Below are positions 36,653-51,154 of a DNA stretch of 64,000 nucleotides, piece by piece (within the stretch, counting starts at the first letter, position 1; the number at the start of each line of letters is the position of its first letter). The translations under genes and the position numbers were made by a program. The stretch covers positions 9,594 through 73,593 of the forward strand of contig JBBDIH010000192.1 of the NCBI GenBank assembly GCA_040880505.1, read 5' to 3'. The DNA is from Minisyncoccota bacterium. GTDB lineage: Bacteria; Patescibacteriota; Minisyncoccia; UBA6257; GWB1-50-10. The notes under the pieces were generated by a model. The model did no database searches, was not told the origin of the DNA, and worked only from the letters and a program-made list of their open reading frames with translations.

Positions 36653-36672
36653 ATATTAATATTACCATATTG

Positions 36673-36745
36673 TGTCCCTACCAAGACTCGAACTTGGAGC
36701 GGGGGATTAGGAATCCCCAGTTTTATCCGGTTAAACTATAGGGAC
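36673..36745 (-). tRNA. tRNA-Arg (anticodon CCT)
   Basis: Hand-folded cloverleaf: acceptor GUCCCUA/UAGGGAC, D stem GUUU/AAAC, anticodon stem GGGGA/UCCCC with loop UUCCUAA, T arm CCAAG-UUCGAGU-CUUGG. 73 nt with no encoded CCA. Confidence 0.9.
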
Positions 36746-36805: not shown

Positions 36806-37552
36806 ATGAGCAAAAAATTAGGTCAACACTTTTTAAAAAATAAAGCAAAAATACATTATTTTATTAAACCTCTAGAAATAGAAGAGGGAGACACAATTAT
36901 TGAAATAGGCCCAGGAAAAGGAGTAATAACGAAAGAACTAAAAAATAAAGGAGTTAAATTAATATGTGTAGAAAAAGACGAAAAACTTGGAGACAAATTA
37001 ATTGAGAAAGGATATGAGGTTATAAAACAAGATATTTTAAAAATTCTACCAAAAATTTCACAAGATATTGGTAATTATAAATTAGTTGGAAATATTCCAT
37101 ACTATATAACCGGTAAATTACTAAGAACTATTGAGGAGTTGGGAAATAAACCTTTTATAACTGTTCTAGGAATTCAGAAACAAGTAGCAGAAAGATTAAC
37201 TGCAGAACCCCCAAAAATGAACATACTAGCTGCTTCTGTTAAATTTTGGGCTGACACAAAAATAATAACAAATATACCAAAAACAGACTTTTCTCCTCCA
37301 CCAAAAGTTGATGGAGCTATAGTAAGCCTAAAAACAAAAGATGAAAATTTTGATAGTGGCATTTATTACAAAGCAGTAAAGACAATATTTAAGCACCCTA
37401 GAAAAACCATAGCCAATAATCTAGATATAGGACTAAAAGAAAGAAAAGGTGAAATAAAAGAAATCTTAGAGTCTGCGGGAATACTGCCTTTTTGGAGGCC
37501 AGAAAACTTATCAATAAAGGACATAAAAAAGTTATCCCAAAAATTATATTAA
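36806..37552 (+). CDS. rsmA: 16S rRNA (adenine1518/1519-N6)-dimethyltransferase
   Basis: KKLGQHFLKN and IIEIGPGKGVIT motifs of KsgA/RsmA. Confidence 0.9.
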   Translation: MSKKLGQHFLKNKAKIHYFIKPLEIEEGDTIIEIGPGKGVITKELKNKGVKLICVEKDEKLGDKLIEKGYEVIKQDILKILPKISQDIGNYKLVGNIPYYITGKLLRTIEELGNKPFITVLGIQKQVAERLTAEPPKMNILAASVKFWADTKIITNIPKTDFSPPPKVDGAIVSLKTKDENFDSGIYYKAVKTIFKHPRKTIANNLDIGLKERKGEIKEILESAGILPFWRPENLSIKDIKKLSQKLY

Positions 37553-38200
37553 TACAAAGTTAACCATTATATTCAGAGTTAGAGCAACTAGAAAGTGTAG
37601 TATTGCTGCTGGTAAAAATGACTTCGTTTTATAGGAAAGGAAACAAAGAAATAAACTAAAAATGGAAGCAAAAACAATTTCAATTCCAGGCTTACCTATA
37701 TGAAAAAGAGTAAATATTAAAGTCACAACCCAAAAACTATGGAGGCCTATCTTTCTAAATAAACCAAAAAACATAAATCCTCTAAATAAAAATTCTTCAG
37801 ATAAATAATAAATTAAAGAAAGAAAAACTAATTGCCATAAAAACTCTGGTAAACTCAAGTTTAGTTGATAGTAATTTTGAAAGCTTTCATTAAATGACAT
37901 TAAAAAAGCGATAGCAATAAAAATAAAAGAGAGGAAGTATATTATAAATTTACTATCTTTTATTTTAGGCCACCTAAAACCAAAAATGCTTACGTCTTTT
38001 TTAAAAAGGAAAATAATACTAAAAATAGGCACAACAAACATACCTAACACTCCCCAAAGAGCTAATAACCCTGAACTAGAGTTATTAAAAAGAGGTGAAA
38101 TTATTGGTATTTGACCTATTAAAATAGAAAATATTGATAAAAACAGTATAAATAGGGAGGAATCTATAAATTTATCTGTATATTTTTTAATTAACGCCAT
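37544..38200 (-). CDS. CPBP-family intramembrane glutamic endopeptidase (CAAX protease-like)
   Basis: Polytopic protein with the SEEFLFRG, FTLFH and LHFLVA motifs. Confidence 0.7.
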   Translation of the reverse strand: MALIKKYTDKFIDSSLFILFLSIFSILIGQIPIISPLFNNSSSGLLALWGVLGMFVVPIFSIIFLFKKDVSIFGFRWPKIKDSKFIIYFLSFIFIAIAFLMSFNESFQNYYQLNLSLPEFLWQLVFLSLIYYLSEEFLFRGFMFFGLFRKIGLHSFWVVTLIFTLFHIGKPGIEIVFASIFSLFLCFLSYKTKSFLPAAILHFLVALTLNIMVNFVLI

Positions 38201-38219: not shown

Positions 38220-38228
38220 TGTTATAAT
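38220..38228 (+). promoter_or_regulatory. extended -10 promoter element (TGtTATAAT) of the T4SS-like operon
   Basis: TGTTATAAT ends 6 nt before the ATG at 38235, which predicts a leaderless or near-leaderless mRNA. No convincing -35 box. Confidence 0.4.
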
Positions 38229-38234
38229 GTTAGT

Positions 38235-39014
38235 ATGAAAAATAAGAAGATTTTAAAATCTTTGGTAATTTTATCTATTGGGGTATTAGCAAGTATTTTT
38301 ATTATAAACCAAGATAGCAATGCTGTCTCTAAAACAACCATAGAATCAAATAATTCTTCAGAGTCAAGTTTAAGTTTTTTGTCTAATAACAACAATGAAA
38401 GATCAGATCTAATAACTAGTAGTCCTAATAATCTAACAGCATACGAAAATGACGATGAAGTAACTAACAACCTAACAGATCTTTTAGCTAACAGCTTTAG
38501 TGGAAACATAGTTTCTGGAGAAGATCCAAAATCTATAGATATAGAATCATTTATTCAAGAAAGAGGCTTAGAAAATTATATGGAAGAAGCTGAATTTAGC
38601 TTAAATGATATAATTATATCTAGTGATGATTCAAAAAATAATCACTTAAGATACCTGGAAAGAATAAGAGAAATAGCAATAAATAATTTTAGTGGTTTTG
38701 AGGGTGAAGCACTAGAGATGTTACAAGCACACATAGAAAGAGGTGACTCAGAAAAAATAGAGAAAATAGTGAGCTTAATACCAAAATTTATTGATGACAT
38801 GCTTTTAGTAAAAGCACCAGAATCAATGAAAGAAGCCCACTTAACAGTAATAAATGTTTGGAGTAAAAAACTTTTTATTTATAAATCAATTTTAAACATG
38901 GAAAATGACCCTTTAAAAGCATATTTAGCCATGGAACATTTTATTAAGGTAGCCGAAGAAGATGTGGCGATTCAGTCCACACTATTAAATTACTACGAAG
39001 AATTAACACAATAA
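38235..39014 (+). CDS. hypothetical N-terminally anchored protein (T4SS-like operon gene 1)
   Basis: Signal/anchor (ILKSLVILSIGVLASIFII), an S/N-rich linker and a helical C-terminal domain. No family recognised. Confidence 0.4.
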   Translation: MKNKKILKSLVILSIGVLASIFIINQDSNAVSKTTIESNNSSESSLSFLSNNNNERSDLITSSPNNLTAYENDDEVTNNLTDLLANSFSGNIVSGEDPKSIDIESFIQERGLENYMEEAEFSLNDIIISSDDSKNNHLRYLERIREIAINNFSGFEGEALEMLQAHIERGDSEKIEKIVSLIPKFIDDMLLVKAPESMKEAHLTVINVWSKKLFIYKSILNMENDPLKAYLAMEHFIKVAEEDVAIQSTLLNYYEELTQ

Positions 39015-39015
39015 A

Positions 39016-40575
39016 ATGTTAAAAAAAATAATAACCATAATACTTTTAATATCCATAGCCACAATGGGGGTTATGCCACAAAAAGCTAATGCTATTTTTG
39101 GTGTGGCTGATATTACTATAAACCCAGAAGGTGTTGTTGGTTGGCTTACCGATGCTGCTAAGTGGTTAGCTGATGTAGCTTGGAGAACCACACTAGCAAC
39201 TCTGAAAAAAAGATTACTAGATAAAATTGTTAACGATATAATATTTTGGATACAAGGTGGATTAGAAGGCCGTCCTGGTTTTGTTGAAAACCCAGGAAAT
39301 TTATTTAGAGATGCCGCTAATGAGGCTGTTGGAGACGTGGTAACAGAGCTTGGTTATGCAAATCTCTGTAGTCCAAATACTCTTCCAAGGCTAGACGTAC
39401 AGCTAAATCAAGCTATGTTTAGCCAAAAGGTTTCTTGTACCTTAGATGACGTTTTAGATGGTTTTGAGGGCACGATAGAAAATTTTAGGGAAGATTTTAG
39501 AACAGGAGGTTGGCTTGCTTACACTGAAACACTAAAACCACAAAATAACAGATGGGGAATTGAAGTTATGGCTCAAAGTGAAGCCGAAAAAAGACAGTCT
39601 CAGCAAACATCATTAGCTCAGTATGAAGCTTCAGTTGGGAATTCATTTGTGTCAAAAAAAAGATGTACCTCATGGGAAAAAGTTGAAGGAGAATTTATAG
39701 GAACTATTGCTTCCGGAGATGGTTATTTCACAAAAACACCTGAAAATGATGATGGTGAAACTTTTAGGTACAATGGAAACACAAATAGACCAAGTGGTTC
39801 TGAGTGGAGATGTGTTGACCCTCGAACAATAACTCCAGGTAGCCTAGCAGGAGATATGGTCTCTAGTGCTATTAAGTCTGACATAGATTTTATTGTTAAC
39901 TCAGATGATCTAAGCACCTATGCCGCAGCCATAATTGATGCTGCTATAAATAAATTAGTTCAAGTTGGTTTAGATGAAATTGGACTTATAGATATAGGTG
40001 AAGTCGGCCTGGGAGCAGCAACTGATGATTGTAATGGTTTAACTGGAGATTTATTACAGGCTTGTCTTGATTATAGAGACACAATCAATGACTCTGTAGA
40101 TACTGCGAATGACGCAATATCAACAATATCTCTTACAAGATTTAATGCCATGATAGATGTTATTGAGTCTATAATTTCATCATTAGAAGTAATTGATATT
40201 GATAATAATAATATTATTGAGGGTCTTGATGAACTGCAATTATGTCAAGAAAGTGAAGGTCTTGATGTTGATGAAGACATAGAAGACTTAAGAGATGAAG
40301 CAGAAGAAAGAAGTGACCAGATAACTCAATATATTAGTGAGTTAGAAACTGTAATAGCTGACATAGAAAACATAATAAATAACCCACCAGAAAATATAGA
40401 GTTAGTTCAAGACTCGTTAATAGCTGCAATTGAAGACTCTATTAAAAACGTAATAACAGAAAATGAACTAGAAAGAATAGAAACTGAAACGTCAGAAGTG
40501 TTAAGTGATGTTAAAAATAGAGTTGATGCTTGTGGAGGCACAAATAACGATAATGATAATGATGATGAGGCATAA
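39016..40575 (+). CDS. hypothetical secreted protein with acidic coiled-coil C-terminus (operon gene 2)
   Basis: Signal peptide ending KANA-IFG, several Cys residues and a long D/E/I-rich helical tail. No family recognised. Confidence 0.4.
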   Translation: MLKKIITIILLISIATMGVMPQKANAIFGVADITINPEGVVGWLTDAAKWLADVAWRTTLATLKKRLLDKIVNDIIFWIQGGLEGRPGFVENPGNLFRDAANEAVGDVVTELGYANLCSPNTLPRLDVQLNQAMFSQKVSCTLDDVLDGFEGTIENFREDFRTGGWLAYTETLKPQNNRWGIEVMAQSEAEKRQSQQTSLAQYEASVGNSFVSKKRCTSWEKVEGEFIGTIASGDGYFTKTPENDDGETFRYNGNTNRPSGSEWRCVDPRTITPGSLAGDMVSSAIKSDIDFIVNSDDLSTYAAAIIDAAINKLVQVGLDEIGLIDIGEVGLGAATDDCNGLTGDLLQACLDYRDTINDSVDTANDAISTISLTRFNAMIDVIESIISSLEVIDIDNNNIIEGLDELQLCQESEGLDVDEDIEDLRDEAEERSDQITQYISELETVIADIENIINNPPENIELVQDSLIAAIEDSIKNVITENELERIETETSEVLSDVKNRVDACGGTNNDNDNDDEA

Positions 40576-42499
40576 AACAATAAAAATAAAAATACTGACT
40601 GTATTGACGTTGTTACTACTTCCATTAGAGGTTTTTGCTCAAGAAGGTGGTGGCTGGTTTGGTTTTAGTTGGGCTGATGCCATGGGTTCTATATTTAGAT
40701 GGCTTGGTTATATGTTTAATGCAATTTCTGGTTTTTTCTTGTGGGTAGCTGGTGCTCTTGTTGATTTTACTCTAACTCTAAATATAAACAGATTAACCAA
40801 TAATGAACTGGTTACTGTTGGTTGGGAAATATCAAGAGATGTGGCTAATTTAGGTTTTGTTCTCGTGATAATTGTGATAGCTTTTGCTACGATATTTAGA
40901 TTTAAAGATTACCAAGCTAAAACAGCTTTAAAAAATTTAATAATTGCCGCAATACTAGTAAACTTCAGCCTAGCCATTGCTGGGGCGGTAATAGATTTTT
41001 CTCATGTAATAACAAACTTTTTTTTACAAAACAGACTAGGCTTTACTAACTCATATGAACTTTCTGGAACTATGGCGACGGCTTTCGGCCCCCAAAGACT
41101 TTTATTAGATGGAGGCGAGGCAATAAATCCTAATACAGATGCTGGAGGAGCATTATCAGGGGCAAGCACAGCGGCGGTGCTCTCAATAACTGGTATGATT
41201 TTCTCTGTTGTGTTTACCTCTCTTACTGCTTTAGGGTTTTTGGCTTTAGCTATTTTACTTTTAATAAGGTTTGTTTTTATATCTTTCTTATTAATAATTG
41301 CGCCTATAAGTTGGCTTTTATTTGCTGTGCCTCAATGGAAAGGCTTATTCCAAAAATGGTGGGACAACTTTATAAAATGGTGTTTTTTCGCTCCTATTAT
41401 GATGTTTTTTATTTATTTAATAGTTTTGAGCGCAGAAGAGCTTTCTAATTTTCCAATTGATTTAGGAAGTGGTTTTGGGGGGGCGCTAGAGACAATTGTT
41501 AGTCAAGGAGCACAAATGGTTGTAATGTTAGGACTTCTAATTGGTGGTATGATGGCCTCTCTTTCTATGGCAACAGAAACGTCAGAGATGGGAAAACAAA
41601 TGGCAACAAAAGCAAAAAAAACCACACAAAAATGGGCTAAAAAGGGAGCCTCAAGAGCTCGTGATAAGGTGCTTGCTGGCGGAGTAGATAAAGAAGGAAA
41701 AACAGGACTTGAGAGATTTAGTCAGAAATATGGATCTGCTCCTCTTGTGGGTAGAGCTATCACAGGAATGTCTGGGGCGTCTTCTAAAGCTAAAGCAAGG
41801 CTTGGGAAAGACACAGACCAGACAAAAGAAAAATATAAAGACAGAACCAAGGAAGACATGGAAAACATGCTAAACAGAAGACAAGTACCTGGGTCTGTTT
41901 CACCGGCTGAAACAGCAGCAAGAGGATTAACATTCTTAGAAAAGGGAGGTAAGTTTGAAGAATTGAGACCAGCAGCCCAAAGCAAGTTAATTGACTCCGC
42001 TAAAACAACAGGGAAAGAAAAGGATTTTATGGCTTTTGCTCCAACTTTAGCCGCAGAATTTGGGAAAGAAATAAAAGACGTAATGGGATCCCTAAAGGAC
42101 TCAACAAAACTAAGTAAGGCTGCATTAGGTAATTCTCAAGTATCTCTTAATATGTCTATTCCACAAATAGATAAACTAGGGAAAGAAGGGGAGACAGAAA
42201 ATAAGGCTGCATTCTTGAATACTATTATGTCTGATCAAGGAATAGCGCCTAATACTTACAAAGAATTCAAAGCAAACGAAAAAGAGCTTGATAAATTCAA
42301 GCAAAAAATAAAGGATGCTGCTGATGCGGGCGATAAAGATAAAGTAAAAGAATTGCAAGCTCAAAGAAATGAACTAAAAGCAAAAATAAAGGATGCTAAA
42401 GAAAATCTAGAAGATAGCGCTAAAAAAGCATATAAAATATTAGAGTCAATGGGAAAAAAGGAGCACTGGCAAGATGAAATAGATAAAAAAATATCTTAA
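40559..42499 (+). CDS. VirB6/TrbL-like polytopic membrane protein (operon gene 3)
   Basis: Signal peptide (MMMRHKTIKIKILTVLTLLLLPLEVFAQEG), at least 6 TM segments and a 280-aa Lys-rich hydrophilic C-terminus. The assignment rests on topology and neighbours. The ORF-track GTG at 40505 is probably too far upstream. Confidence 0.5.
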   Translation: MMMRHKTIKIKILTVLTLLLLPLEVFAQEGGGWFGFSWADAMGSIFRWLGYMFNAISGFFLWVAGALVDFTLTLNINRLTNNELVTVGWEISRDVANLGFVLVIIVIAFATIFRFKDYQAKTALKNLIIAAILVNFSLAIAGAVIDFSHVITNFFLQNRLGFTNSYELSGTMATAFGPQRLLLDGGEAINPNTDAGGALSGASTAAVLSITGMIFSVVFTSLTALGFLALAILLLIRFVFISFLLIIAPISWLLFAVPQWKGLFQKWWDNFIKWCFFAPIMMFFIYLIVLSAEELSNFPIDLGSGFGGALETIVSQGAQMVVMLGLLIGGMMASLSMATETSEMGKQMATKAKKTTQKWAKKGASRARDKVLAGGVDKEGKTGLERFSQKYGSAPLVGRAITGMSGASSKAKARLGKDTDQTKEKYKDRTKEDMENMLNRRQVPGSVSPAETAARGLTFLEKGGKFEELRPAAQSKLIDSAKTTGKEKDFMAFAPTLAAEFGKEIKDVMGSLKDSTKLSKAALGNSQVSLNMSIPQIDKLGKEGETENKAAFLNTIMSDQGIAPNTYKEFKANEKELDKFKQKIKDAADAGDKDKVKELQAQRNELKAKIKDAKENLEDSAKKAYKILESMGKKEHWQDEIDKKIS

Positions 42500-42504
42500 A
42501 TTAA

Positions 42505-43590
42505 ATGATTACTCAAACAATAACAAAAGAATTAAAAGATTACATAGACTCAAAAGAGTTTTTCTTGGCCGTTGATGAGATAAACAAAAATGCTGAAATA
42601 TATGATGAAGGAGCAATTTCTAAAATTATATTTGACATGTTTAGAGGAATTTTCCCTGCTAGAGAACTAATAAACGAAATATCTGATAGGTTTAGTTGGG
42701 ATAAAGAATTTTCTATGTCTATAGCTAACGAAATAAAGACTCAAGTTTTTGAGCCGGTAAAATATGAAATGGAGCGCTCTGGTTTTAATTTAGACGATAT
42801 TGAAATAATAAATCCAACTCCTTTGAAAGATTTATCTATAGAGGCATTGCTTAAAAAAGTAGGAGTAGAGCCTGAGCTTAAAAAAAGTGATGAAAATAAA
42901 AAGACTAAATCAATCTCTACTAAAGACTCAGAGAATAAAGACGTACTTTCAAGTATAGAAAAAACAGGTGAAGAAACAAACATTAAATTTGAAGGTGAAA
43001 AGGACGATGAAAGTAAAGGAGTAAAAACCACATCAAAGGAAGACCCTAAACCATTTGTTCTGCACCAAGAATCGTCTGGCGATGTCTTTAATGAAATCGA
43101 AGAAAACAAGCCTTCATCACAAAGAAAAAGTTTTGGTTTTTCTTTAGGAAAATTCTTTTCTTCTAGTGACACGAATAAAAAGAAGGAGGTGCCAACCGCT
43201 AAAATAGAGGGACCCAATAAAATAGAGGAAAAAGATAAAAAGAAAACAGTTCACTACAGTGAACACAGAACAAAACTGCAAGGTGATGGCTCCGGCTTTA
43301 TAAATCTTTCAAAGGTAAATACGCCCTCAACAAATACCACAAAGAAACAAGAAAAAACCCAAGAAAACAAATCTGCATCTTCTTCTTCGCCAAAAACTAC
43401 GAGTAAACAAAGTAAAGAGCCTGACAAAAAAACTGTCCCTGCTTCGTCTTCGCCGAAGACTACAAACGAAAAAAGTAAAGCCTCAGGAATCAAGGAAGGT
43501 ATATTTACAAAAACCTCAAACAAAACAAAACAAAATGACAAAGAAGATAATTCTCCTGAAACAAAAGGTAATACAATAAATCTAAGATAA
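42505..43590 (+). CDS. hypothetical protein, globular N-terminus plus K/S/T-rich disordered tail (operon gene 4)
   Basis: About 110 aa of ordered-looking N-terminus, then low complexity with the internal repeat SSSPKTT(S/N)(K/E)(Q/K)SK. Confidence 0.35.
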   Translation: MITQTITKELKDYIDSKEFFLAVDEINKNAEIYDEGAISKIIFDMFRGIFPARELINEISDRFSWDKEFSMSIANEIKTQVFEPVKYEMERSGFNLDDIEIINPTPLKDLSIEALLKKVGVEPELKKSDENKKTKSISTKDSENKDVLSSIEKTGEETNIKFEGEKDDESKGVKTTSKEDPKPFVLHQESSGDVFNEIEENKPSSQRKSFGFSLGKFFSSSDTNKKKEVPTAKIEGPNKIEEKDKKKTVHYSEHRTKLQGDGSGFINLSKVNTPSTNTTKKQEKTQENKSASSSSPKTTSKQSKEPDKKTVPASSSPKTTNEKSKASGIKEGIFTKTSNKTKQNDKEDNSPETKGNTINLR

Positions 43591-43595
43591 TTTTT

Positions 43596-44102
43596 ATGGC
43601 AAACTTTCAGGTCCCACAATTTATAGAAGGAAAAGCAAAAATAGTTGGTCCGCTAACTATGTCTCAGTTTATATATGTTGGAATTGCTTCGGGAATCAGT
43701 GTTATAGCATTTTATACTCTTGGTTTCTTTTTGTGGGTTGTTATTTCTATTCTTTCATTGAGTTTAGGTATTAGTTTGGCCTTTGTTAAAATAAACGGAC
43801 AAGACTTTCCATCAATGATACGATCAGCTATAAATTTTTGGCAAAAACCAAAAATATACTCATGGCAAAGACAATCAGAAACAACCACATTAGATGTTTC
43901 TAGCATACAAAGAATTGAGGCGGCCAGAAGAGACATGAGTCTTCAACAAAAATTGAAGTCTGCAGCCTTAAGTATAAGCACGGGAGACTTCTCACTGTTT
44001 AGAAAAAAAAGCAGAAGCAAGCCAAAAGAAAGATATCAAGTTGTAAGACATTTAACAGGAGAAAAAAGCTTAGCTAAAAGAGTTGATTACAAATCAAGTT
44101 AA
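43596..44102 (+). CDS. PrgI-family (VirB3-like) membrane protein (operon gene 5)
   Basis: MANFQVPQFIEGKAKIVGPLTMSQFIYVG followed by two TM helices. This matches the PrgI family seen next to VirB4 in Gram-positive-type T4SS. Confidence 0.6.
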   Translation: MANFQVPQFIEGKAKIVGPLTMSQFIYVGIASGISVIAFYTLGFFLWVVISILSLSLGISLAFVKINGQDFPSMIRSAINFWQKPKIYSWQRQSETTTLDVSSIQRIEAARRDMSLQQKLKSAALSISTGDFSLFRKKSRSKPKERYQVVRHLTGEKSLAKRVDYKSS

Positions 44103-44122
44103 AGAATATATAATTAAAACTA

Positions 44123-44782
44123 ATGACTCAACAACAACCAACAGCACCAACACAAGATTTCGTAAAAGTAAAAGACATTAGAGATAGTGTTTTATACATG
44201 AAAGACGGGAGCATGAGAAAGATTCTAATAGTAAATGGAATCAACTTTGATTTAAAGTCTCAAGAAGAGCAAAATCTTATACTAGGTTCTTTTCAAAGTT
44301 TTCTAAATACACTTGATTTTTCTGTGCAGTTTTTTATACATTCAAGAAAAATAAATGTTAATTCTTATTTGGAAAAAGTAAAAGAAAAAGAAAGCGAAGA
44401 AGATAATGAACTTTTAAAAATACAAATTACTGAATATATAGAATTTATAAAATCCTTTGTTCAGGAAAACCCAATAATAACAAAAAGTTTTTTTGTTGTT
44501 GTTCCTTATTCTCCAAATATCACTGTTGATAAAGCTAAAAAAGGAATAATGGATTTTTTTAATAAGGGCAGCAAAAAAGATGAGAGAGCAGAAGGAACTC
44601 AAGAAAGCCTTCAACAGTTAGCTTATAGAGAAAATGAGGTTATATCTGGATTAGATCAAATAGGATTAAGAGCTCAATCTTTAGCTGATGAAGAGTTAGT
44701 AGAGCTTTTTTATAACTTATATAATCCAGAAATAATAGAGAAAAAAGGCTCAGAAGTACCAAAAATATCAAAAAATAACTAA
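44123..44782 (+). CDS. VirB4 N-terminal-region-like protein (operon gene 6)
   Basis: DFVKVKDIRDSVLYMKDGSMRKILIVNGINFDLKSQEEQNLILGSFQSFLNTLDFSVQFFIHSRKIN resembles the extreme N-terminal segment of long Gram-positive VirB4/TraE proteins. It stops 7 nt before the ATPase ORF. Confidence 0.4.
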   Translation: MTQQQPTAPTQDFVKVKDIRDSVLYMKDGSMRKILIVNGINFDLKSQEEQNLILGSFQSFLNTLDFSVQFFIHSRKINVNSYLEKVKEKESEEDNELLKIQITEYIEFIKSFVQENPIITKSFFVVVPYSPNITVDKAKKGIMDFFNKGSKKDERAEGTQESLQQLAYRENEVISGLDQIGLRAQSLADEELVELFYNLYNPEIIEKKGSEVPKISKNN

Positions 44783-44789
44783 ATACAAA

Positions 44790-46550
44790 ATGGATAAGAA
44801 CATAAAAATACCAAAACCCTACAAGCCAGAAGATGAAGACGTCTCTAATATAGTGGCTCCTTCAGGCCTAGAAGTTAATTCTAATTATTTAAAGATAGGA
44901 GACTACTACTCAAAAACATTCTTTATTTTTACTTATCCTAGATACCTTTCGTCTGGTTGGTTTTCTCCAATTATTAACATGGCCGAAATGATGGATATAT
45001 CAATTTTTGTTCATCCTATGGATTCTTCACTGGCAATGAAAAACCTACAAAAAAAAGTGGTCCAAATTCAGGCCGAACTAAATGAAAGAGATGAAAAAGG
45101 TTTAGTTAGAGACCCTCAACTAGAAACAGCATACAGAGACATTGAAAATTTAAGAGATTCCTTAAGACAAGGAACAGAAAAACTATTCCAGGTAGGAGTT
45201 TATATAACAATATATGCTGAAAATTTAGACAAACTATCAAAACTTGAGCAAATAATTAAATCTACTCTTGAAAGTAAACTTATATATATAAAAACAGCTT
45301 TATTTAAACAATTAGAGGGCCTTAACTCTACACTTCCCATGGCTGAAGATGATCTCTCTGTAAAAACACCACTAAACACTGGTCCTGCATCCTCTCTTTT
45401 TCCTTTTATTTCTCCTGATTTAACATCAGATGAGGGAATAATGTATGGAGTTAATATGCATAACAATTCTTTAGTTATATTTGATAGGTTTTCACTACAA
45501 AATGCTAACTCTGTTGTTTTTGCTACATCAGGAGGAGGAAAATCATACGCTTCTAAACTAGAGATAATAAGGTCGTTGATGATGGGCACAAATGTTTTGG
45601 TTATAGACCCAGAAAATGAATACCAAAACCTAGCAAACGCTGTTGGAGGCAGCTTCTTTAAAATATCACTTACTTCACCAAATCAAATAAACCCCTTTGA
45701 TATACCAATAATTCCAGAGGGTGAAGATCCCGCAAATGTTTTTAAGTCACATATTTTAAACTTAACAGGCCTTATAAAGTTAATGTTAGGAGAAATTAAT
45801 CCAGAACAAGACTCTCTTCTAGATAGAGCTATAATTGAGACTTATGCCGCTAGAGACATAACACCAGAAAATTTTGGTAAAACAAAAGAGCTGAATCCTC
45901 CACTACTGGAAGACTTACAAACCGTGCTTAAAAACACAGAAGGTGGAGAGTCTTTAGCAAGTAGATTAGAAAAATATGTAAATGGTTCTTATGCTGGATT
46001 TACAAATGCACCAACAAATATTGACGTAAAAAACAGGCTCATAGTTTTCTCTATAAGAGATTTAGAAGATGAGTTGCGACCAATAGCAATGTATATTGTT
46101 CTAAATTTTGTATGGAATTTAGTAAGATCAGAGTTAAAGAAAAGATTACTTTTAATAGATGAGGCTTGGTGGATGATGAAATATCCAGACAGTGCTTCTT
46201 TCCTCTTTGGTTTGGTAAAAAGAGCTAGAAAATATTATTTAGGTGTAACAACCATAACTCAAGATGTTGAAGATTTTATGAGATCAGAGTATGGAAAACC
46301 AATCGTTACAAACTCATCGCTTCAATTGTTAATGAAACAATCAACTTCAAGCATAAAGGCTGTTGGTGATGCCTTTGATCTAACTGAAAGTGAGAGGTCT
46401 TTCTTATTAGAATCAAAGGTAGGAGAGGGGTTGTTCTTTGTTGGTTTAAAACATATAGCTATTAAAATAATACCTTCTTATACTGAAGATCAAATAATAA
46501 CCACTGATCCAGAACAATTATTAAAGTTAAAGAAAAGCAAGAATGAGTAG
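44790..46550 (+). CDS. VirB4/TraE-family type IV secretion ATPase (operon gene 7)
   Basis: IVAPSGLEVNSNYLKIGDYYSKTFFIFTYPRYL, Walker A VVFATSGGGKSYASK, Walker B LLLIDEAWWMM and GVTTITQDVEDF. Confidence 0.85.
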   Translation: MDKNIKIPKPYKPEDEDVSNIVAPSGLEVNSNYLKIGDYYSKTFFIFTYPRYLSSGWFSPIINMAEMMDISIFVHPMDSSLAMKNLQKKVVQIQAELNERDEKGLVRDPQLETAYRDIENLRDSLRQGTEKLFQVGVYITIYAENLDKLSKLEQIIKSTLESKLIYIKTALFKQLEGLNSTLPMAEDDLSVKTPLNTGPASSLFPFISPDLTSDEGIMYGVNMHNNSLVIFDRFSLQNANSVVFATSGGGKSYASKLEIIRSLMMGTNVLVIDPENEYQNLANAVGGSFFKISLTSPNQINPFDIPIIPEGEDPANVFKSHILNLTGLIKLMLGEINPEQDSLLDRAIIETYAARDITPENFGKTKELNPPLLEDLQTVLKNTEGGESLASRLEKYVNGSYAGFTNAPTNIDVKNRLIVFSIRDLEDELRPIAMYIVLNFVWNLVRSELKKRLLLIDEAWWMMKYPDSASFLFGLVKRARKYYLGVTTITQDVEDFMRSEYGKPIVTNSSLQLLMKQSTSSIKAVGDAFDLTESERSFLLESKVGEGLFFVGLKHIAIKIIPSYTEDQIITTDPEQLLKLKKSKNE

Positions 46551-46881
46551 TAAAGAAAAAAAATTTAATGAAGCAGAGATAATAATAGGAGGGTTAGCTA
46601 CTTTGGGGGTTGATGCTGTGGCTTTTTTGTTAGACTTAACAGCAATAGGTTATATTATAGCAACTCCGCTACAGGCCTTTACTTCATTTATGACTTCTCT
46701 TTGGGCGAGCAGTAAGGGAGACTTAGAGGCCTTTAAGGCAAAAAGACAAGTGATAAAGCAAGCAAGTAATTTTCTTCCTTGGGTTCCTACTTGTTTTGTT
46801 TTTTTTGTGTGGGAAGTTGTAAAACTTAACAATCCAGAAATAGCAGGCAAGATTGATTTAACTAAAGGAAAAAAGTTGTAG
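46543..46881 (+). CDS. hypothetical small membrane protein (operon gene 8)
   Basis: 112 aa with 2-3 hydrophobic helices. It overlaps the VirB4 stop by 8 nt. Confidence 0.35.
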   Translation: MSSKEKKFNEAEIIIGGLATLGVDAVAFLLDLTAIGYIIATPLQAFTSFMTSLWASSKGDLEAFKAKRQVIKQASNFLPWVPTCFVFFVWEVVKLNNPEIAGKIDLTKGKKL

Positions 46882-46911
46882 AAAAAACTAACAAAAGCCA
46901 TAATATATAGT

Positions 46912-47595
46912 ATGAGGAAATTATTAATAATCATAGTTGTATTAACATTACTGGTTATCCCTTTTGTGTTTATTGAGGCTCAAACAACACCAAGTAGCTC
47001 TGAAGTTATAATTACATGGAAAGCAAACAACTTTTATCCTTCTAATTACCAAAACAAGGCGCCAGTAACTAGAAACTCCAGCATTGATGTGTCTTTAGAA
47101 TTAATAGAAAATCAAAGAATGGTTAATCTTTCAGGTGATGTAGTCACTTGGTATTTGGATGGAACATTTTTTATAAAAGGACCAGGAATAGACGAGATAA
47201 GCTTTGAATCAAACAAATTAAATGGTGATAGTCATAGAGTTAGAGCTATAATAGAGGGGTCCGGAAGGACAGTTGAAAGAACCATTGTTATTCCTGTAAA
47301 AAATTATGAGTCTATTATAGAGACAAGACTAAGTGGATCTTCTGTTCAATTAGGAAGTAGTTTAAATCTTACGGCTTTCCCTTACTTTTTTAATATAGAA
47401 TCTTTAAACGAGCTAAGTTTTAACTGGACTGTTAATGGAGAAGAAAGAAAAGACACAACCAATGAAATATCTTTAAATGTTGGTGCTAATCCCGATTTAG
47501 TGGGGTCAAGAATTTTAATAAATTCAACTATTATAAACCAGGCAGACCTAACAGAATCAGCAAGATCAACTAAAAACTTAACTATTACTAATTAA
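46912..47595 (+). CDS. hypothetical secreted protein with two beta-sandwich-like repeats (operon gene 9)
   Basis: Signal peptide (LLIIIVVLTLLVIPFVFIEAQ). The repeated pattern is ITWKANNF...VTWYLDG and then LSFNWTVNG. Confidence 0.35.
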   Translation: MRKLLIIIVVLTLLVIPFVFIEAQTTPSSSEVIITWKANNFYPSNYQNKAPVTRNSSIDVSLELIENQRMVNLSGDVVTWYLDGTFFIKGPGIDEISFESNKLNGDSHRVRAIIEGSGRTVERTIVIPVKNYESIIETRLSGSSVQLGSSLNLTAFPYFFNIESLNELSFNWTVNGEERKDTTNEISLNVGANPDLVGSRILINSTIINQADLTESARSTKNLTITN

Positions 47596-47597
47596 CT

Positions 47598-48503
47598 ATG
47601 AAAAAAATATTTTTAATAATATTAATAGTGTCTATTCTAATTCCTGTTGGTAGTGTTTTTGCTGAAGAAACATTTACTGTTGATTTTCCTAGTACAGGTT
47701 TTTCTGGTGGAACAGATATAGGTAGCTTTATAAATGATATATATAACACTGCTTTAGGTGTTGGTGGAATAGCAGCTGTTGCTGTAATTGTTTATGGATC
47801 AATTTACTTAACTATTTCAGGTGCTAGTCCCGATAAACAAAAAGAGGGGAGAGATATAATAACTGCTGCTATTTGGGGTGTGGTCTTACTTTTTGGAGCT
47901 TATGTTGTGTTAAACACAATAAACCCGCAATTAGTAGAATTAAGCTCTCCTAGGGGTCCCCAGCTAACACCAACAACAACTAGTCTTGGTCCTAACTTTG
48001 AGGGTCAAGGATGCATGAGTGAGGTTTCACAATCAATAAAAGATGAGTGTTCTCCTCAGGGGGTTTACGTAGAAGGAGGAGCTATTCCTAGTTGTGAAAC
48101 TGGATATGCATATTGTATAGACCCAACTGGAGATTATTCTGATGAATTTGGTTGTTATGATGCTCCACAAGGTGAAGAAGGAACTAAAACTAAAGTTGGA
48201 GATGTTTCTTGTGATCCTAGTGGAACTCCAGTTTGTGATGGTGGTAAATTAGTTTGTGAAGACCCTCCTGGATCTCCTGAACAAATACAGGCGGTAGATT
48301 GTAGTGGTTGGGGGGGCTGTAGCGAAGAATGGCAAGACTTTGAAAATGTAACAATCCAGCCTGGAGGTGAGTATTACAGAGGAATATACTACCCTGAAGA
48401 AACAGAATACAGTGAAGCAAGGTGTGTTGTTTATGCATACGTAAAAACATTAAATGGAGATCATATTAAACAAGACATAGATGGTCTACAGGCTTGTTAT
48501 TAA
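47598..48503 (+). CDS. VirB2/TrbC-like T4SS pilin fused to a Cys-rich C-terminal domain (operon gene 10)
   Basis: Signal peptide and a helix-loop-helix core (FINDIYNTALGVGGIAAVAVIVYGSIYLTISGASPDKQKEGRDIITAAIWGVVLLFGAYVVLNTINP), as in the T4SS_pilin family. A 180-aa tail with 12 Cys follows. Confidence 0.55.
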   Translation: MKKIFLIILIVSILIPVGSVFAEETFTVDFPSTGFSGGTDIGSFINDIYNTALGVGGIAAVAVIVYGSIYLTISGASPDKQKEGRDIITAAIWGVVLLFGAYVVLNTINPQLVELSSPRGPQLTPTTTSLGPNFEGQGCMSEVSQSIKDECSPQGVYVEGGAIPSCETGYAYCIDPTGDYSDEFGCYDAPQGEEGTKTKVGDVSCDPSGTPVCDGGKLVCEDPPGSPEQIQAVDCSGWGGCSEEWQDFENVTIQPGGEYYRGIYYPEETEYSEARCVVYAYVKTLNGDHIKQDIDGLQACY

Positions 48504-48509
48504 TAAATT

Positions 48510-49643
48510 ATGAATAAAAAATACAAAATAATTTTAGCGATAAGTTTAATTATAACCTTAGTTATAGTGGCTTTATTAATATTTACTAGAGATAAACAAA
48601 CTCCAATCATTGAAGAAGAAACAGCTGGCACGCTGCCTGATTCAGGTGATCAAGGTGATAATCTTCCATCTCAAGGACTTCAACAAAACCCAATCTCTAA
48701 ATTAACCGACGATGGGTTAGAGGTTTTTGATTACTGGATAAAACCATCTACTAATGAGGTTTTTTATATTGGTATTAATGGAAATGTTTATGAGGCTAGA
48801 ACAAAACCAAATACTGAAATATCATCTCAAGGAATAACAGCCATAAATAATATAAAACCATCCATGGATGGAGAAGAAATTTTAGTTTCATTTGGAAACC
48901 CTAATAGCCCTTCTTGGGGTATGTTTAGCATGTCTGATAGGTCCTGGAGGCCTCTTCCTTCTTCTATAAAAGAGATAAGTTGGGGAGAAAATAACGAAAA
49001 GTTAATCGCCATAATAGAAGGAATTAATGATGTCATCTTAGCTAGTATCGATCTATCGGTTAATACTTTTAGTGAGGGCTCTTTTGAGTATGAAACCTTA
49101 GTAAGAAACTTTAAGATGAGGGATGTTGGTTTAAATTGGGTTGATGATTCTATATTAATATCGGAAAAACCAGCATCTTTTTATTCATCAAGAATATGGA
49201 TGATGGATCAAGAAAGCCTAAACGTTAATTTATTAACAGAACAAACTAAATCCCTAACAACAAGATGGTTAGGTGATCAAGATATTGTATTTATGTTTAG
49301 TGAAGATGGATTTTATATATTAAACAAAAACTTAGAAAATGAGGTTCCTGTGCCTTTTGAAACCATACCAACAAAATGTAATTCATCGGATGAATATGTT
49401 TATTGTTTTGTTCCACAGGGTTCAAATGTTTTTTCTGGAGAAAGTGCTTTAGACGATTATTATAAAAATAAACTAAAAACAAATGATGTTTTACTTAAAA
49501 TAAATAAAGAAAATGTTAATGTTGAAAGAGTAAATATTTCTGGAAACGTACCTAATATAGACGCTAAAAATGTTAATTATATAGACAATAAAATCTTCTT
49601 TATAAATAAAAAGGATGGTGGGCTTTATAGTGTGGTTTTATAA
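48510..49643 (+). CDS. hypothetical N-terminally anchored protein, possibly beta-propeller-like (operon gene 11)
   Basis: One TM helix and a repetitive beta-rich sequence. No family recognised. Its stop overlaps the jag stop. Confidence 0.35.
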   Translation: MNKKYKIILAISLIITLVIVALLIFTRDKQTPIIEEETAGTLPDSGDQGDNLPSQGLQQNPISKLTDDGLEVFDYWIKPSTNEVFYIGINGNVYEARTKPNTEISSQGITAINNIKPSMDGEEILVSFGNPNSPSWGMFSMSDRSWRPLPSSIKEISWGENNEKLIAIIEGINDVILASIDLSVNTFSEGSFEYETLVRNFKMRDVGLNWVDDSILISEKPASFYSSRIWMMDQESLNVNLLTEQTKSLTTRWLGDQDIVFMFSEDGFYILNKNLENEVPVPFETIPTKCNSSDEYVYCFVPQGSNVFSGESALDDYYKNKLKTNDVLLKINKENVNVERVNISGNVPNIDAKNVNYIDNKIFFINKKDGGLYSVVL

Positions 49644-50746: not shown

Positions 50747-50988
50747 ATTATTTTTTTAGTAATTTCTTCTTTTAATTCTCTAAAATTTAGCTTTTCTGCT
50801 CCTGGCTTTGTTATTATTCTTAAGTCACCATTAATTTTGTTTTTAAGGGTTTTAATTATATCCTTTATTCTTCTTTTTAAAAGGTTTCTTTCTGTGGCTT
50901 TTTTAGAAACCTTCCTGCTAATAATAATTATTAGCGGCTTTGCTTGTGAGTTTTTCTTGTATTTTTTAACAACAAATAAAGACCCCAT
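50743..50988 (-). CDS. rnpA: ribonuclease P protein component (short)
   Basis: ISRKVSKKATERNLLKRRIKD matches the RNR motif region. It sits between rpmH and yidC. Confidence 0.7.
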   Translation of the reverse strand: MGSLFVVKKYKKNSQAKPLIIIISRKVSKKATERNLLKRRIKDIIKTLKNKINGDLRIITKPGAEKLNFRELKEEITKKII

Positions 50989-51016
50989 GGGTTTTTAGGG
51001 TTTATTAATAAAGAAA

Positions 51017-51154
51017 CTAGGGGGTTAGTTTCTTTCTTTTTTTGTTTTTTCTGTTTTTTAAAACAGACCTACCTCCAGAGGTTTTTTTTCTAACTAAAAA
51101 TCCGTGAGTTTTTTTTCTTTTTCTTTTTTTGGGTTGATAAGTTCTTTTTGGCAT
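51017..51154 (-). CDS. rpmH: 50S ribosomal protein L34
   Basis: Not in the ORF track (45 aa). My translation is [45 protein letters not shown], which is canonical L34. Confidence 0.9.

Follow-up and report, generated by a model that had tools for sequence, protein, structure and literature searches.

The VirB4 proteins of Patescibacteria are described in the main text of Quinonero-Coronel et al. 2025 (PMC12102498) as a monophyletic clade nested in MPF-FATA, and their system as one with TrsD, PrgI, VirB6 and VirB2-like pilins and without a relaxase. According to the same text, the T4SS of Paceibacteria adjoins dnaA/dnaN/rnpA/rpmH/ksgA, and VirD4-like homologues sit elsewhere in most Patescibacteria genomes (PMC12102498). 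Saccharibacteria require their T4SS to grow epibiotically (Wang et al. 2023; PMC10633639, main text): in S. epibionticum the system and its pilins are essential (PMC10633639), and the coupling-protein homologue is dispensable according to the main text of PMC12102498. Patescibacteria T4SSs have been reviewed (PMC12857230), and published views of their role diverge, favouring either the delivery of effectors or the uptake of nucleotides (PMC11665869). A cultured Minisyncoccota parasite is reported to carry tubular structures, possibly pili of a T4SS, and to take up host RNA (bioRxiv 10.64898/2026.06.21.733656).

We analyzed a 64-kb stretch of DNA (the window) from an ultrasmall Paceibacteria (CPR) bacterium, in which a cluster of eleven genes adjoins dnaA. 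An earlier note on this DNA had called the cluster essentially uncharacterised, which overstates the case: the same system is treated in PMC12102498 (main text) and PMC12857230, and it is essential in Saccharibacteria (PMC10633639, main text). The cluster is a further example of the relaxase-free chromosomal "Patescibacteria T4SS" published 2023-2025, and it shows no essential difference from that system as set out in the main text of PMC12102498. The locus is most probably a chromosomal, vertically inherited Patescibacteria-clade T4SS of the type usual in Paceibacteria (Parcubacteria).

Layout of the locus and its core proteins

The cluster comprises eleven co-directional forward-strand ORFs (38235-49643 in the ORF listing of the window), all intact and as tightly packed as the earlier note had described, with intergenic gaps from -17 nt (for an ORF3 start at Met19, 40559) or -8 nt up to +30 nt (Table 1).

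Table 1. Features of the cluster and its surroundings (window positions)
Feature	Position	Strand	Length	Description
M23/LysM peptidase	18450-19454
Xer-like tyrosine recombinase	19789-20673			sole tyrosine recombinase; 18 kb from cluster
tRNA-Arg	36672-36745			1.5 kb upstream of cluster
rsmA/ksgA	36806-37552	+		PF00398 (1.4e-40); conserved left boundary of T4SS site
ORF1	38235-39014	+	259 aa	N-terminal signal/anchor helix and C-terminal domain
ORF2	39016-40575	+	519 aa	secreted; directly upstream of VirB6-like gene
ORF3	40505-42499	+	~645-664 aa	VirB6/TrbL-like polytopic membrane protein (indirect assignment)
ORF4	42505-43590	+	361 aa	cytoplasmic
ORF5	43596-44102	+	168 aa	PrgI/VirB3-family membrane protein; predicted membrane partner of VirB4
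ORF6	44123-44782	+	219 aa	TrsD-like; putative separately encoded VirB4 N-terminal domain
ORF7	44790-46550	+	586 aa	VirB4-family ATPase, CD1110/MPF-FATA type
ORF8	46543-46881	+	112 aa	small membrane protein; 8-nt overlap with virB4
ORF9	46912-47595	+	227 aa	secreted, signal peptide
ORF10	47598-48503	+	301 aa	signal peptide, VirB2-like two-helix pilin module (~40-110), C-terminal extension
ORF11	48510-49643	+	377 aa	N-terminal TM anchor, linker, predicted extracellular beta-propeller
jag, yidC, rnpA, rpmH, dnaA	49638-52652			conserved right boundary, origin-proximal set
jag, yidC, rnpA		-		R3H and 60KD_IMP Pfam domains; Ribonuclease_P in called genes
rpmH	51017-51154	-		Ribosomal_L34 in called genes
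dnaA	51288-52652	+		Pfam DnaA domains

Profile-HMM searches with Pfam and NCBIfam support the VirB4, PrgI and pilin assignments made in the earlier note. ORF7, with intact Walker A (ATSGGGKS) and Walker B (LLLIDEAWWMM) motifs readable in the translation, scores 379 bits against the NCBIfam conju_CD1110 VirB4 model (cut-off 325; model positions 185-734) and matches P-loop_TraG (5e-26) and AAA_10 in Pfam and the VirB4 C-terminal domain of PDB entry 4ag5 (3.9e-43). Its match to the CedB model stays far under the cut-off of 700 (45 bits, 4.7e-12), and ORF7 and ORF6 both give weak matches to the Mbov_0397 family model (NCBIfam). The closest plasmid homologues are Bacillota/Actinomycetota VirB4 proteins of the monoderm CD1110 type, with 29-35% identity. 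The genome collection contains at least 592 relatives of VirB4, of which the best 80 share 56-77% identity with ORF7 and carry titles of Patescibacteria/Parcubacteria-type organisms or unclassified uncultured MAGs. On these best matches, ORF7 is a putative member of the Patescibacteria clade, and it is the predicted motor of the system.

The VirB4 motor is encoded in two pieces, with ORF6 specifying the TrsD-like N-domain and ORF7 the ATPase of CD1110 type. ORF6, which the earlier note had likened to a VirB4 N terminus, indeed aligns with VirB4 models in their N-terminal parts (CD1110 positions 2-116, VirB4_plasma 100-254), matches NCBIfam TrsD under the cut-off (1.6e-9), and has a precomputed match to PF26593 (TraC-like). 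In 81 of 82 loci, a member of its family immediately precedes virB4. ORF5 scores 29.3 bits against PF12666 (PrgI), above the GA threshold of 27, and is a predicted membrane partner of VirB4; its family was located by tblastn in 79 of the 82 loci and is present in all 34 syntenic ones.

For ORF3 (start at 40505, 40508 or 40559), a VirB6/TrbL-like identity is indicated indirectly, at the level of the family. The window protein itself has no Pfam match by hmmscan, but a precomputed PF19590 (TrbL_3) match is on record, 3 of 22 orthologues match Pfam TrbL/VirB6 (PF04610, 1.9e-7), and the family HMM matches, with 6e-22, a polytopic protein encoded 5' of PrgI in a cluster from Bacillota. A match to the CD3337/EF1877 family (NCBIfam) is weak. 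The protein has ∼7 TM segments, followed by a hydrophilic, K/E-rich C-terminal tail of ∼300 residues ("extended VirB6").

The pilin and the accessory proteins

ORF10 matches the T4SS_pilin family (PF18895, 35.2 bits; GA 26.6), in agreement with the VirB2-like pilin proposed before, and weakly the Mbov_0395 pilin-like model (NCBIfam, 2e-5). Its C-terminal extension of 190 residues is Cys-rich (12 Cys in all of ORF10) and belongs to no recognisable family; in the orthologue alignment the pilin module is conserved and the tail hypervariable. Extensions of at least 60 residues occur in 57 of 67 in-cluster pilin-domain ORFs of related loci, which sit downstream of virB4, and in some relatives the extension is a peptidoglycan hydrolase (SLT_3, NlpC/P60 or CHAP domains). 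So long an extension is atypical for a polymerising VirB2. A separate array of three short pilins lies ∼45 kb from the cluster (contig gene listing).

Six further proteins had all been taken to be secreted or membrane-anchored. This holds for five of them, since ORF4 has neither a signal peptide nor a TM segment: ORF1, ORF2, ORF9, and ORF11 are extracellular, ORF8 is a small membrane protein, and ORF4 is cytoplasmic.

ORF1, probably a conserved accessory protein (33 of 34 syntenic loci), has a TM-like segment at residues 6-24, no Pfam or NCBIfam match and a C-terminal domain without detectable relatives; a TSP3-like DxDxDG repeat is present in orthologues and absent from the window copy. ORF2 (31/34) begins with a signal peptide, continues with a conserved N-terminal domain that contains Cys (∼30-330), and ends in an acidic helical bundle. 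Of the 5,715 cluster representatives matched by the N-domain profile, not one bears a family name. Structure prediction with AF2 yielded a propeller for ORF11 and a poor model for ORF2 (pLDDT 53.9, confident only at residues 345-510); a Foldseek search of the latter for a VirB5 analogue returned nothing below 1e-3.

The cytoplasmic ORF4, whose family is present in all 34 syntenic loci, consists of an N-terminal domain of ∼90 residues, an extended K/S/T/E-rich stretch of low complexity, and a short motif at the C terminus, which reads DPYREPI in most orthologues and GNTINLR in the window copy. The N-domain is conserved and the middle variable in the alignment, and no PDB relative was found. ORF8 (28/34) has TM-like hydrophobic segments, a conserved ELIP..LP motif (alignment of 19 orthologues), and no PDB match; hhalign shows no relationship to the pilin (probability 0.5%). 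ORF9 (33/34) shows repeated "Y.W..NG"-type motifs in its consensus and is possibly Ig-like, since its profile weakly matches Hoc, a protein with an Ig-like fold (3.9e-3). ORF11 (33/34) is modelled as a membrane-anchored beta-propeller (pLDDT 75.6, pTM 0.70; helix 3-27, all-beta region 62-376), with a Foldseek probability of 1.0 against many propellers including TolB; the family profile also finds TolB (3e-5).

Conservation, flanks and missing components

As the earlier note had pointed out, the cluster sits among core genes, and its site between rsmA and jag-yidC-rnpA-rpmH/dnaA is fixed in dozens of related species. rsmA/ksgA lies 5' of the cluster in 44 loci, and the right flank has the order jag-yidC-rnpA-rpmH-dnaA-dnaN, as in most related loci. 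Across 34 loci from related genomes that span rsmA to yidC, the site is identical, each of the eleven families occurs in 28-34, and the exact order ORF1 to ORF11 is kept in 25. VirB4 identity correlates with DnaA identity (Pearson 0.92, n = 47), which fits vertical inheritance, and conservation is stronger in VirB4 (56-77% identity) than in DnaA (39-66%). Judging by dnaA, dnaN, and rpmH only, the cluster would lie close to the origin; E. coli-type DnaA boxes show no enrichment.

When the remaining window ORFs of 100 residues or more were scanned with Pfam, all identified genes were core genes; VirD4, a relaxase, and VirB8-11 were missing, as the earlier note had stated. The called genes of the flanks, ∼20 kb beyond the window, are likewise core genes, so that no relaxase, coupling protein, VirB11, or VirB7-10 is encoded between contig positions 4658 and 84690 (∼80 kb), and att repeats are absent as well. 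The sole FtsK-like protein (7327-9456) was considered as coupling protein and rejected, its FtsK gamma domain identifying it as a cell-division translocase; a T2SSE-family gene at the window end, considered as VirB11, encodes a 554-residue PilB-like protein. A distant coupling protein is possible, since VirD4-like homologues lie elsewhere in most Patescibacteria genomes (PMC12102498, main text).

That no integrase or repeats mark a mobile element is correct for the cluster itself, which has no flanking integrase and no convincing att-like direct repeats, but a Xer-like recombinase is encoded in the window. The claim of no composition change likewise stands in part: the GC content of the cluster (0.32-0.36) is slightly above that of the immediate flanks (0.28-0.30) and inside the range of the window. 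The HMM matches, the fixed site, and the absence of a relaxase and att repeats in the DNA inspected agree with the earlier description of a non-conjugative T4SS derivative; that it forms a pilus we infer from the pilin-family domain alone.

Comparison with known systems

With the Patescibacteria-clade T4SS, as described in the main text of PMC12102498, the window locus shares a VirB4 of MPF-FATA descent with an adjoining TrsD-like gene, PrgI/VirB3, VirB6 and a VirB2-like pilin near virB4, the lack of a relaxase and of a nearby coupling protein, and a chromosomal site by dnaA/dnaN/rnpA/rpmH/ksgA. The S. epibionticum cluster (SEML1_0006-0019; PMC10633639) differs in its in-cluster array of six pilins, whereas the window has one extension-bearing pilin in the cluster, the three-pilin array ∼45 kb away, and no lysozyme or peptidase gene after virB4.

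Among conjugation systems, the division into TrsD and VirB4 recalls pGO1 (pGO1/pSK41 TrsC-TrsD-TrsE), and ORF7 passes the cut-off of the family model named after CD1110 of CTn2. MPF-FATA systems, including pCF10 (PrgH-PrgI-PrgJ), share the PrgI-family VirB3, the order VirB6-VirB3-(TrsD)-VirB4, and a monoderm architecture without VirB7/9/10. The window locus differs from them in having no relaxase, no T4CP of the PcfC/TrsK type, no VirB1-like hydrolase gene, no recognisable VirB8-like protein, and no PrgB-type adhesin, in possessing a VirB2-like pilin, in being chromosomally fixed rather than mobile, and in a VirB4 identity of 29-35%. The MPF-T (Agrobacterium VirB/VirD4) type was rejected, as the window proteins have no Pfam or NCBIfam match to VirB5, VirB7, VirB8, VirB9, VirB10, or VirB11.

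A related core is found on the 898-kb replicon of Pontibacillus sp. ALD_SL1 (NZ_CP062975.1), which encodes, in this order, two pilin-like proteins, VirB6-like, PrgI-like, and TrsD-like proteins, and a VirB4 with 35% identity to that of the window. Our family HMMs match its pilin-like, VirB6-like, PrgI-like, and TrsD-like proteins with 1e-17, 6e-22, 1e-12, and 2e-11, respectively, and find no homologues of ORF1, ORF2, ORF4, ORF8, ORF9, or ORF11. Its pilins, however, are short and encoded upstream of VirB6, and a 1,050-residue DD-metalloendopeptidase follows virB4. Likeness to the Mycoplasma ICE proteins Mbov_0395 and Mbov_0397 is confined to the weak model matches of ORF10 and ORF6/ORF7; Mycoplasma ICEs are mobile and have their own transfer genes.

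H. pylori ComB and archaeal Ced are minimal systems of VirB4 and VirB2/VirB3/VirB6-like membrane parts, without VirD4, relaxase, or VirB11. The window set is likewise minimal, centred on VirB4, and devoid of these three components, but its sequence kinship with ComB and Ced is limited to the common VirB4 superfamily. ComB has VirB7-10 for a diderm envelope, and no CedA-like protein was recognised in the window. ComB and Ced have been cited as precedent for coupling-protein-free DNA uptake (PMC11665869).

Possible functions

We infer, as does the literature, a role in attachment, uptake, or transfer. In the mechanism we propose, PrgI would hold VirB4/TrsD at the membrane, and VirB4/TrsD would drive a channel built on VirB6 and assemble VirB2-like subunits, supplied by ORF10 and by the three short pilins of the array 45 kb from the cluster. 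The product would be a surface filament or conduit at host-cell contacts, whose wall-spanning or host-contacting part may comprise the propeller ORF11, the secreted repeat protein ORF9, and ORF1/ORF2. Its task may be a coupling-protein-independent one in epibiotic feeding, either the import of host macromolecules (nucleic acids) or the upkeep of the feeding contact. Such a task is favoured because the system lacks a coupling protein and because the homologue in Saccharibacteria is dispensable where the T4SS is essential, according to the main text of the two reports. While speculative, we consider a feeding role most likely, ahead of conjugation.

Rather unlikely, though favoured in several papers (PMC10633639, main text; PMC11665869), is a T4SS that translocates effectors, exporting proteins into or onto the host bacterium and causing leakage or envelope remodelling. 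Its cargo could possibly be the disordered cytoplasmic ORF4, whose low-complexity family bears a conserved C-terminal motif, or hydrolases such as those fused to the in-cluster pilin-like proteins of some relatives. However, no coupling protein is encoded near the cluster in the window or the contig flanks, the T4CP homologue of S. epibionticum is dispensable (PMC12102498, main text), none of the cluster genes was recognised as effector-like, and proteins with signal peptides can leave a monoderm cell without a T4SS.

An adhesion or contact organelle, in which the VirB4 machine only assembles pilin-like surface proteins with variable domains and transports nothing, seems improbable. The hypervariable extracellular extension seen in 57 of 67 relatives is the pattern to be expected of host-specific binding, a propeller and a possibly Ig-like protein are extracellular partners, and the DNA inspected encodes no coupling protein; yet type IV pili already provide adhesion in such bacteria (PMC12857230), a PilB-like ATPase is encoded at the window end, and adhesion alone would call for neither the cytoplasmic ORF4 nor a conserved channel protein of the VirB6 type. 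An ordinary ICE or its remnant near tRNA-Arg, with relaxase, coupling protein, and integrase elsewhere or recently lost, is largely refuted and highly improbable: VirB4, TrsD, PrgI, and VirB6 do descend from monoderm conjugation systems, the tRNA gene is close by, and cluster GC slightly exceeds that of the immediate flanks, but genes, order, and site are the same in 25 of 34 loci, VirB4 divergence parallels that of DnaA with VirB4 the more conserved, every cluster ORF is intact, and ∼80 kb of contig holds no flanking integrase, att repeats, relaxase, or T4CP.

We encountered no mention of the families of ORF1, ORF2, ORF4, ORF8, ORF9, and ORF11 in the main text of PMC12102498 or PMC10633639. 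To the published Patescibacteria T4SS our analysis adds the conservation of the full eleven-gene order, including these six "unknown" genes, and the correlation of VirB4 with DnaA identity, together with a predicted propeller in ORF11, a cytoplasmic ORF4, a pilin with a hypervariable extension in ORF10, and a related core on a Bacillota replicon.

Results

The T4SS cluster consists of eleven closely packed plus-strand genes at 38235-49643 (see the table), as the earlier note had described, with spacings of -8 to +30 nt; starting ORF3 at Met19 (40559), as was done there, gives a smallest gap of -17 nt. Pfam and NCBIfam searches bear out the T4SS genes, and the VirB4, PrgI and pilin matches all lie above their cut-offs. 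ORF7 contains the Walker A and Walker B motifs quoted previously and is assigned by NCBIfam to the VirB4-like ATPases of the CD1110 family (379 bits against a cut-off of 325), with an aligned span restricted to model positions 185-734. It also matches P-loop_TraG (5e-26), AAA_10 and DUF87 in Pfam, and its C-terminal domain matches the solved VirB4 domain in PDB 4ag5 (3.9e-43). [quoted passage not shown] Given these N-terminal matches and the truncated alignment of ORF7, the two genes represent a VirB4 that is split like TrsD/TrsE of pGO1. ORF5 matches PrgI (29.3 bits, gathering score 27) and ORF10 matches T4SS_pilin (35.2 bits, gathering score 26.6).

Among the core T4SS genes, the putative VirB6/TrbL protein ORF3 is the weakest assignment. 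It is predicted to have ∼7 transmembrane segments followed by a 300-amino acid hydrophilic tail, its precomputed Pfam record is PF19590 (TrbL_3), and 3 of 22 ORF3 orthologues match PF04610 (TrbL/VirB6, best 1.9e-7), but window ORF3 itself returned no Pfam match in hmmscan. Neither TrbL_3 nor the precomputed record for ORF6 (PF26593, TraC-like) was reproduced by the new hmmscan, probably owing to differing Pfam releases. A PDB profile search with ORF3 yielded coiled-coil noise only.

Features of the window, of its own contig beyond the window ends (L083, L084) and of related loci
Feature	Position	Strand	Length	Remark
M23 peptidase	18450-19454	-		LysM domains
Xer-like tyrosine recombinase	19789-20673	+		
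tRNA-Arg	36672-36745			single
CPBP/Rce1-like intramembrane protease	37544-38200	-		between rsmA and ORF1; 34 nt to ORF1
ORF1	38235-39014	+	259 aa	accessory
ORF2	39016-40575	+	519 aa	accessory; N-domain profile from 39016-40050
ORF3	40505-42499	+	664 aa as listed	putative VirB6/TrbL
ORF4	42505-43590	+	361 aa	accessory
ORF5	43596-44102	+	168 aa	PrgI/VirB3
ORF6	44123-44782	+	219 aa	TrsD-like
ORF7	44790-46550	+	586 aa	VirB4
ORF8	46543-46881	+	112 aa	accessory
ORF9	46912-47595	+	227 aa	accessory
ORF10	47598-48503	+	301 aa	pilin
ORF11	48510-49643	+	377 aa	accessory
rpmH-dnaA spacer	within 50960-51290			T-rich
PilB-like T2SSE ATPase	62644-64000 (L084:7014-8678)	-	554 aa	cut by window end; faint MshEN N-domain
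Isoleucyl-tRNA-synthetase-like gene	L084:730-4278		1,182 aa	outside window end
Three stand-alone T4SS_pilin/TrbC genes	L083:19297-20519		134, 115, 125 aa	6.2-7.4 kb before window position 1
Example pilin, related locus	L038:14495-15745			
Example pilin, related locus	L068:4013-5617			
Example pilin, related locus	L032:14966-16264			
Pontibacillus sp. ALD_SL1 cluster (L086)	NZ_CP062975.1:351801-361354			898-kb replicon

The placement of the cluster among core genes was confirmed by Pfam for every other substantial ORF of the window (RNase J, RecA, FtsK with its gamma domain, NusA, TsaD, PNPase, LeuRS, HtrA, RsmA, Jag, YidC, DnaA, DnaN, PBP1, RuvABC parts and PolA). Genes outside the window ends were read on contig JBBDUA010000366.1 (GCA_040904155.1, a Candidatus Paceibacterota MAG), and the called genes there are also core genes, except for an array of three short pilin genes. 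We found no VirD4/TcpA-type coupling protein, relaxase, VirB11 or VirB8-10 among the substantial ORFs of the window, in agreement with the earlier note, and neither a coupling protein nor a relaxase over contig positions 4658-84690. An integrase and a lytic enzyme had likewise been thought absent from the 64 kb. This does not strictly hold, as an Xer-like recombinase and an M23/LysM peptidase had been overlooked, but neither is linked to the cluster; they are located ∼18-20 kb upstream of it. The tRNA-Arg gene had been missed as well. A repeat search around the cluster returned only AT-rich chance matches and no att-like direct repeats, as claimed before. The composition does change, from a GC content of 0.28-0.30 in the adjacent DNA to 0.32-0.36 in the cluster, but these values lie inside the overall range of the window. 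With conjugation genes absent nearby, an ordinary ICE is essentially excluded, and reading the cluster as a non-conjugative T4SS derivative is correct.

E. coli-type DnaA boxes (TTATCCACA, at most one mismatch) occur 19 times in the whole window against 18.9 expected, the consensus being that of E. coli, and the rpmH-dnaA spacer contains no obvious ones. As the boxes are not enriched, it is gene content alone (dnaA, dnaN, rpmH) that would place the cluster near the origin. Scanning for promoter and terminator consensus sequences told little, with 43 promoter-like sites where 60 were expected. The T2SSE-family gene cut by the window end, also overlooked before, encodes a type IV pilus component and not VirB11; besides the T4SS, the type IV pilus is the surface apparatus whose importance to epibionts is known. 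Farther out, the isoleucyl-tRNA-synthetase-like gene carries an unusual insertion, a His_Phos_1 match between two tRNA-synt_1 matches. The protease gene preceding ORF1 has no homologue at that site in any of 80 related loci.

We next assessed conservation of the cluster. A search with ORF7, using one genome per species, yielded a minimum of 592 relatives; for the 80 best, identity is 56-77%. The titles of these 80 records carry names of Patescibacteria/Parcubacteria type (Paceibacterota, Jorgensen-, Giovannoni-, Kaiser-, Terry- and Taylorbacteria) or denote unclassified uncultured MAGs; many are labelled 'Candidatus Saccharibacteria', which may be a submitter default. By tblastn, the neighborhood rsmA - cluster - jag-yidC-rnpA-dnaA-dnaN-PBP1 is near-universal in related loci. 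Since the accessory proteins diverge quickly, profiles were searched iteratively against every ORF in the loci. Among the 34 loci that span rsmA to yidC, 28-34 carry any given one of the eleven families, and the exact ORF1-ORF11 order is kept in 25. The cluster is thus a fixed 11-gene module in Paceibacteria. Identity to the window sequence is correlated between VirB4 and DnaA (Pearson 0.92, n = 47), with VirB4 (56-77%) better conserved than DnaA (39-66%), DnaN or YidC. Conserved order, this tracking and the high conservation of VirB4 argue that the cluster is no island but an ancient, vertically inherited part of the chromosome, apparently under strong purifying selection.

In ORF10 a signal peptide precedes a VirB2-like module of two helices, and a Cys-rich tail of 190 residues follows. 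In alignments of its relatives the pilin module is conserved and the tail hypervariable; downstream of virB4, 57 of the 67 ORFs with a pilin domain have tails of at least 60 residues (median 167 residues). Two tails exceed the Pfam gathering score, that of locus L038 for SLT_3 and that of L068 for NlpC/P60; tail matches to CHAP and Peptidase_M15_4 are weak. In a few relatives the tail is thus a predicted peptidoglycan hydrolase. A regular expression for LAS peptidases (6 matches) proved unreliable, only SLT_3 and NlpC/P60 exceeding the Pfam threshold. The distant three-pilin array, preceded by gyrA and a gene for a solute-binding protein, encodes the same signal peptide and two-helix module as ORF10, without the C-terminal extension.

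The six accessory proteins had all been described as secreted or membrane-anchored. Topology prediction agrees for ORF1, ORF2, ORF9 and ORF11, which carry an N-terminal signal or anchor, and for ORF8, which has transmembrane-like hydrophobic segments, but ORF4 has none and is cytoplasmic. ATPases apart, ORF4 is the sole cytoplasmic protein that the cluster encodes. Its conserved ∼90-residue N-terminal domain is followed by a long low-complexity stretch rich in K/S/T/P and, at the C terminus, by a short motif that reads DPYREPI in most orthologues and GNTINLR in the window; a role as adaptor or as substrate is conceivable. ORF8 has a conserved ELIP..LP motif; a second pilin was considered and rejected (hhalign probability 0.5%). 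PDB profile searches with ORF4 and ORF8 returned nothing. Structure prediction was informative for ORF11, whose AlphaFold model (pLDDT 75.6, pTM 0.70) consists of a transmembrane helix, a linker and a β-propeller; the propeller is confirmed by Foldseek, and the family profile matches TolB propellers (3e-5). In ORF9 a motif of the form 'Y.W..NG' recurs, and there is a weak match to the Ig-like protein Hoc. A VirB8-like identity for ORF1 found no sequence support; its orthologues show just a TSP3-like calcium-binding repeat, absent from window ORF1.

In ORF2 a conserved N-terminal domain that contains Cys is followed by a helical bundle at the C terminus. A profile of the N-terminal domain collects 5,715 representatives at 50% clustering (2,560 at E ≤1e-30) and thus defines a very large unnamed family. 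A paralogue, P0022 (WDZ80_03775, 655 aa), is found on a different contig of the same assembly; a look-up returned no database record for it or for the window-end T2SSE ORF. The AF2 model of ORF2 is poor (13 sequences, pLDDT 53.9), Foldseek found nothing below E 0.2 in the PDB, and a PDB profile search gave coiled-coil noise only. A VirB5/TrbJ-like pilus-tip protein, considered because ORF2 is secreted and lies upstream of VirB6, was unsupported.

The nearest plasmid-borne VirB4 proteins are of the CD1110 type, from Bacillota and Actinomycetota, and share 29-35% identity with ORF7. The best match (35%) lies on a Pontibacillus replicon classed as non-mobilizable in PLSDB, where two pilin-like genes (annotated Mbov_0395 family) are followed by VirB6-like, PrgI-like, TrsD-like and VirB4 genes and a large DD-metalloendopeptidase, adjoining flagellar genes. 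Window family HMMs match Pontibacillus cluster genes at 1e-17, 6e-22, 1e-12 and 2e-11. A pilin-like gene and the VirB6/PrgI/TrsD/VirB4 core are thus shared by the window cluster and at least one monoderm system outside Patescibacteria, whereas the family HMMs find no counterpart of ORF1, ORF2, ORF4, ORF8, ORF9 or ORF11 in the Pontibacillus cluster. By sequence comparison, the six accessory genes appear to be lineage-specific.

Discussion

The locus is an instance of a T4SS already published in detail (PMC12102498, PMC10633639), and the verdict 'essentially uncharacterised' in the earlier note does not stand. Quinonero-Coronel et al. 2025 (PMC12102498) report VirB4 in 2,417 of 3,035 surveyed Patescibacteria genomes, almost all of it within a single clade nested inside MPF-FATA, with TrsD, VirB3/PrgI, VirB6 and VirB2-like pilins near virB4, relaxases almost absent and coupling-protein homologues seldom nearby; the commonest neighbors in Paceibacteria and Microgenomatia are DnaA, DnaN, RnpA, KsgA and RpmH. 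The window locus agrees feature for feature. For Saccharibacteria, Wang et al. 2023 (PMC10633639) found the T4SS and pilins essential for epibiotic growth by Tn-seq, and noted a T4SS without coupling and relaxase proteins. In a 2025 FEMS review these systems are listed as a new group among the T4SSs, one that potentially bears pili (PMC12857230), and a 2026 preprint reports tubular structures, possibly T4SS pili, and feeding on host RNA in a cultured Minisyncoccota parasite (bioRxiv 10.64898/2026.06.21.733656). The conserved unannotated accessory proteins, the extension-bearing pilin and the Bacillota relative were not found in the searched main text of the papers cited, and the residual interest of the locus lies in these three.

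The pilin of these systems has been suggested in print to be possibly co-opted from other T4SS classes. The core shared with Pontibacillus bears on this origin, that is, on inheritance with a monoderm system versus later co-option. Three roles are conceivable for ORF10, as a subunit that polymerizes, as one at a minor or tip position, or as a membrane anchor bearing a domain directed at the host. Pilin-hydrolase fusions could substitute for the missing VirB1, and hydrolase tails may explain why VirB1 homologues are associated with virB4 mainly in Paceibacteria (PMC12102498).

From T4SS biology in general, VirB4 with TrsD, docked by VirB3/PrgI, would energize a VirB6-based channel and the membrane extraction of the pilin, and the extracellular proteins would form the wall-crossing, host-contacting part. 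We favor a role in host feeding that is independent of a coupling protein and would be uptake of host macromolecules or upkeep of a feeding junction, because the T4SSs without coupling proteins known to us are importers (ComB, Ced) or Sec-dependent exporters, and because these bacteria cannot make nucleotides. The role is also favored by S. epibionticum, where a T4CP homologue is dispensable and the T4SS is not (PMC12102498). Effector export is a live rival: a 2024 perspective, which calls the role 'completely unknown', names effector delivery beside nucleotide uptake as candidates (PMC11665869). A T4SS for adhesion alone is a live rival as well.

We tentatively propose, as a joint reading that we think rather unlikely to hold in full, that the Paceibacteria T4SS is a distinct variant in which a VirB2-like hairpin would carry or anchor a hypervariable host-targeting C-terminal domain (a hydrolase in some species) and six lineage-specific proteins (the ORF2 family, the anchored propeller, the secreted repeat protein, the small membrane protein, the cytoplasmic low-complexity protein and ORF1) would take over the missing functions of VirB1/5/8, giving a conduit that would import host nucleic acids without any coupling protein.

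The window locus leaves the picture of the Patescibacteria T4SS as an essential system unchanged. To our knowledge, the Patescibacteria T4SS is the sole one known to be essential for growth of its bearer, and Patescibacteria account for a large share of bacterial diversity. The 11-gene module, its six unannotated partners, the variable-tailed pilin and the Bacillota core are concrete targets for structural and genetic studies of the way in which epibionts tap their hosts.
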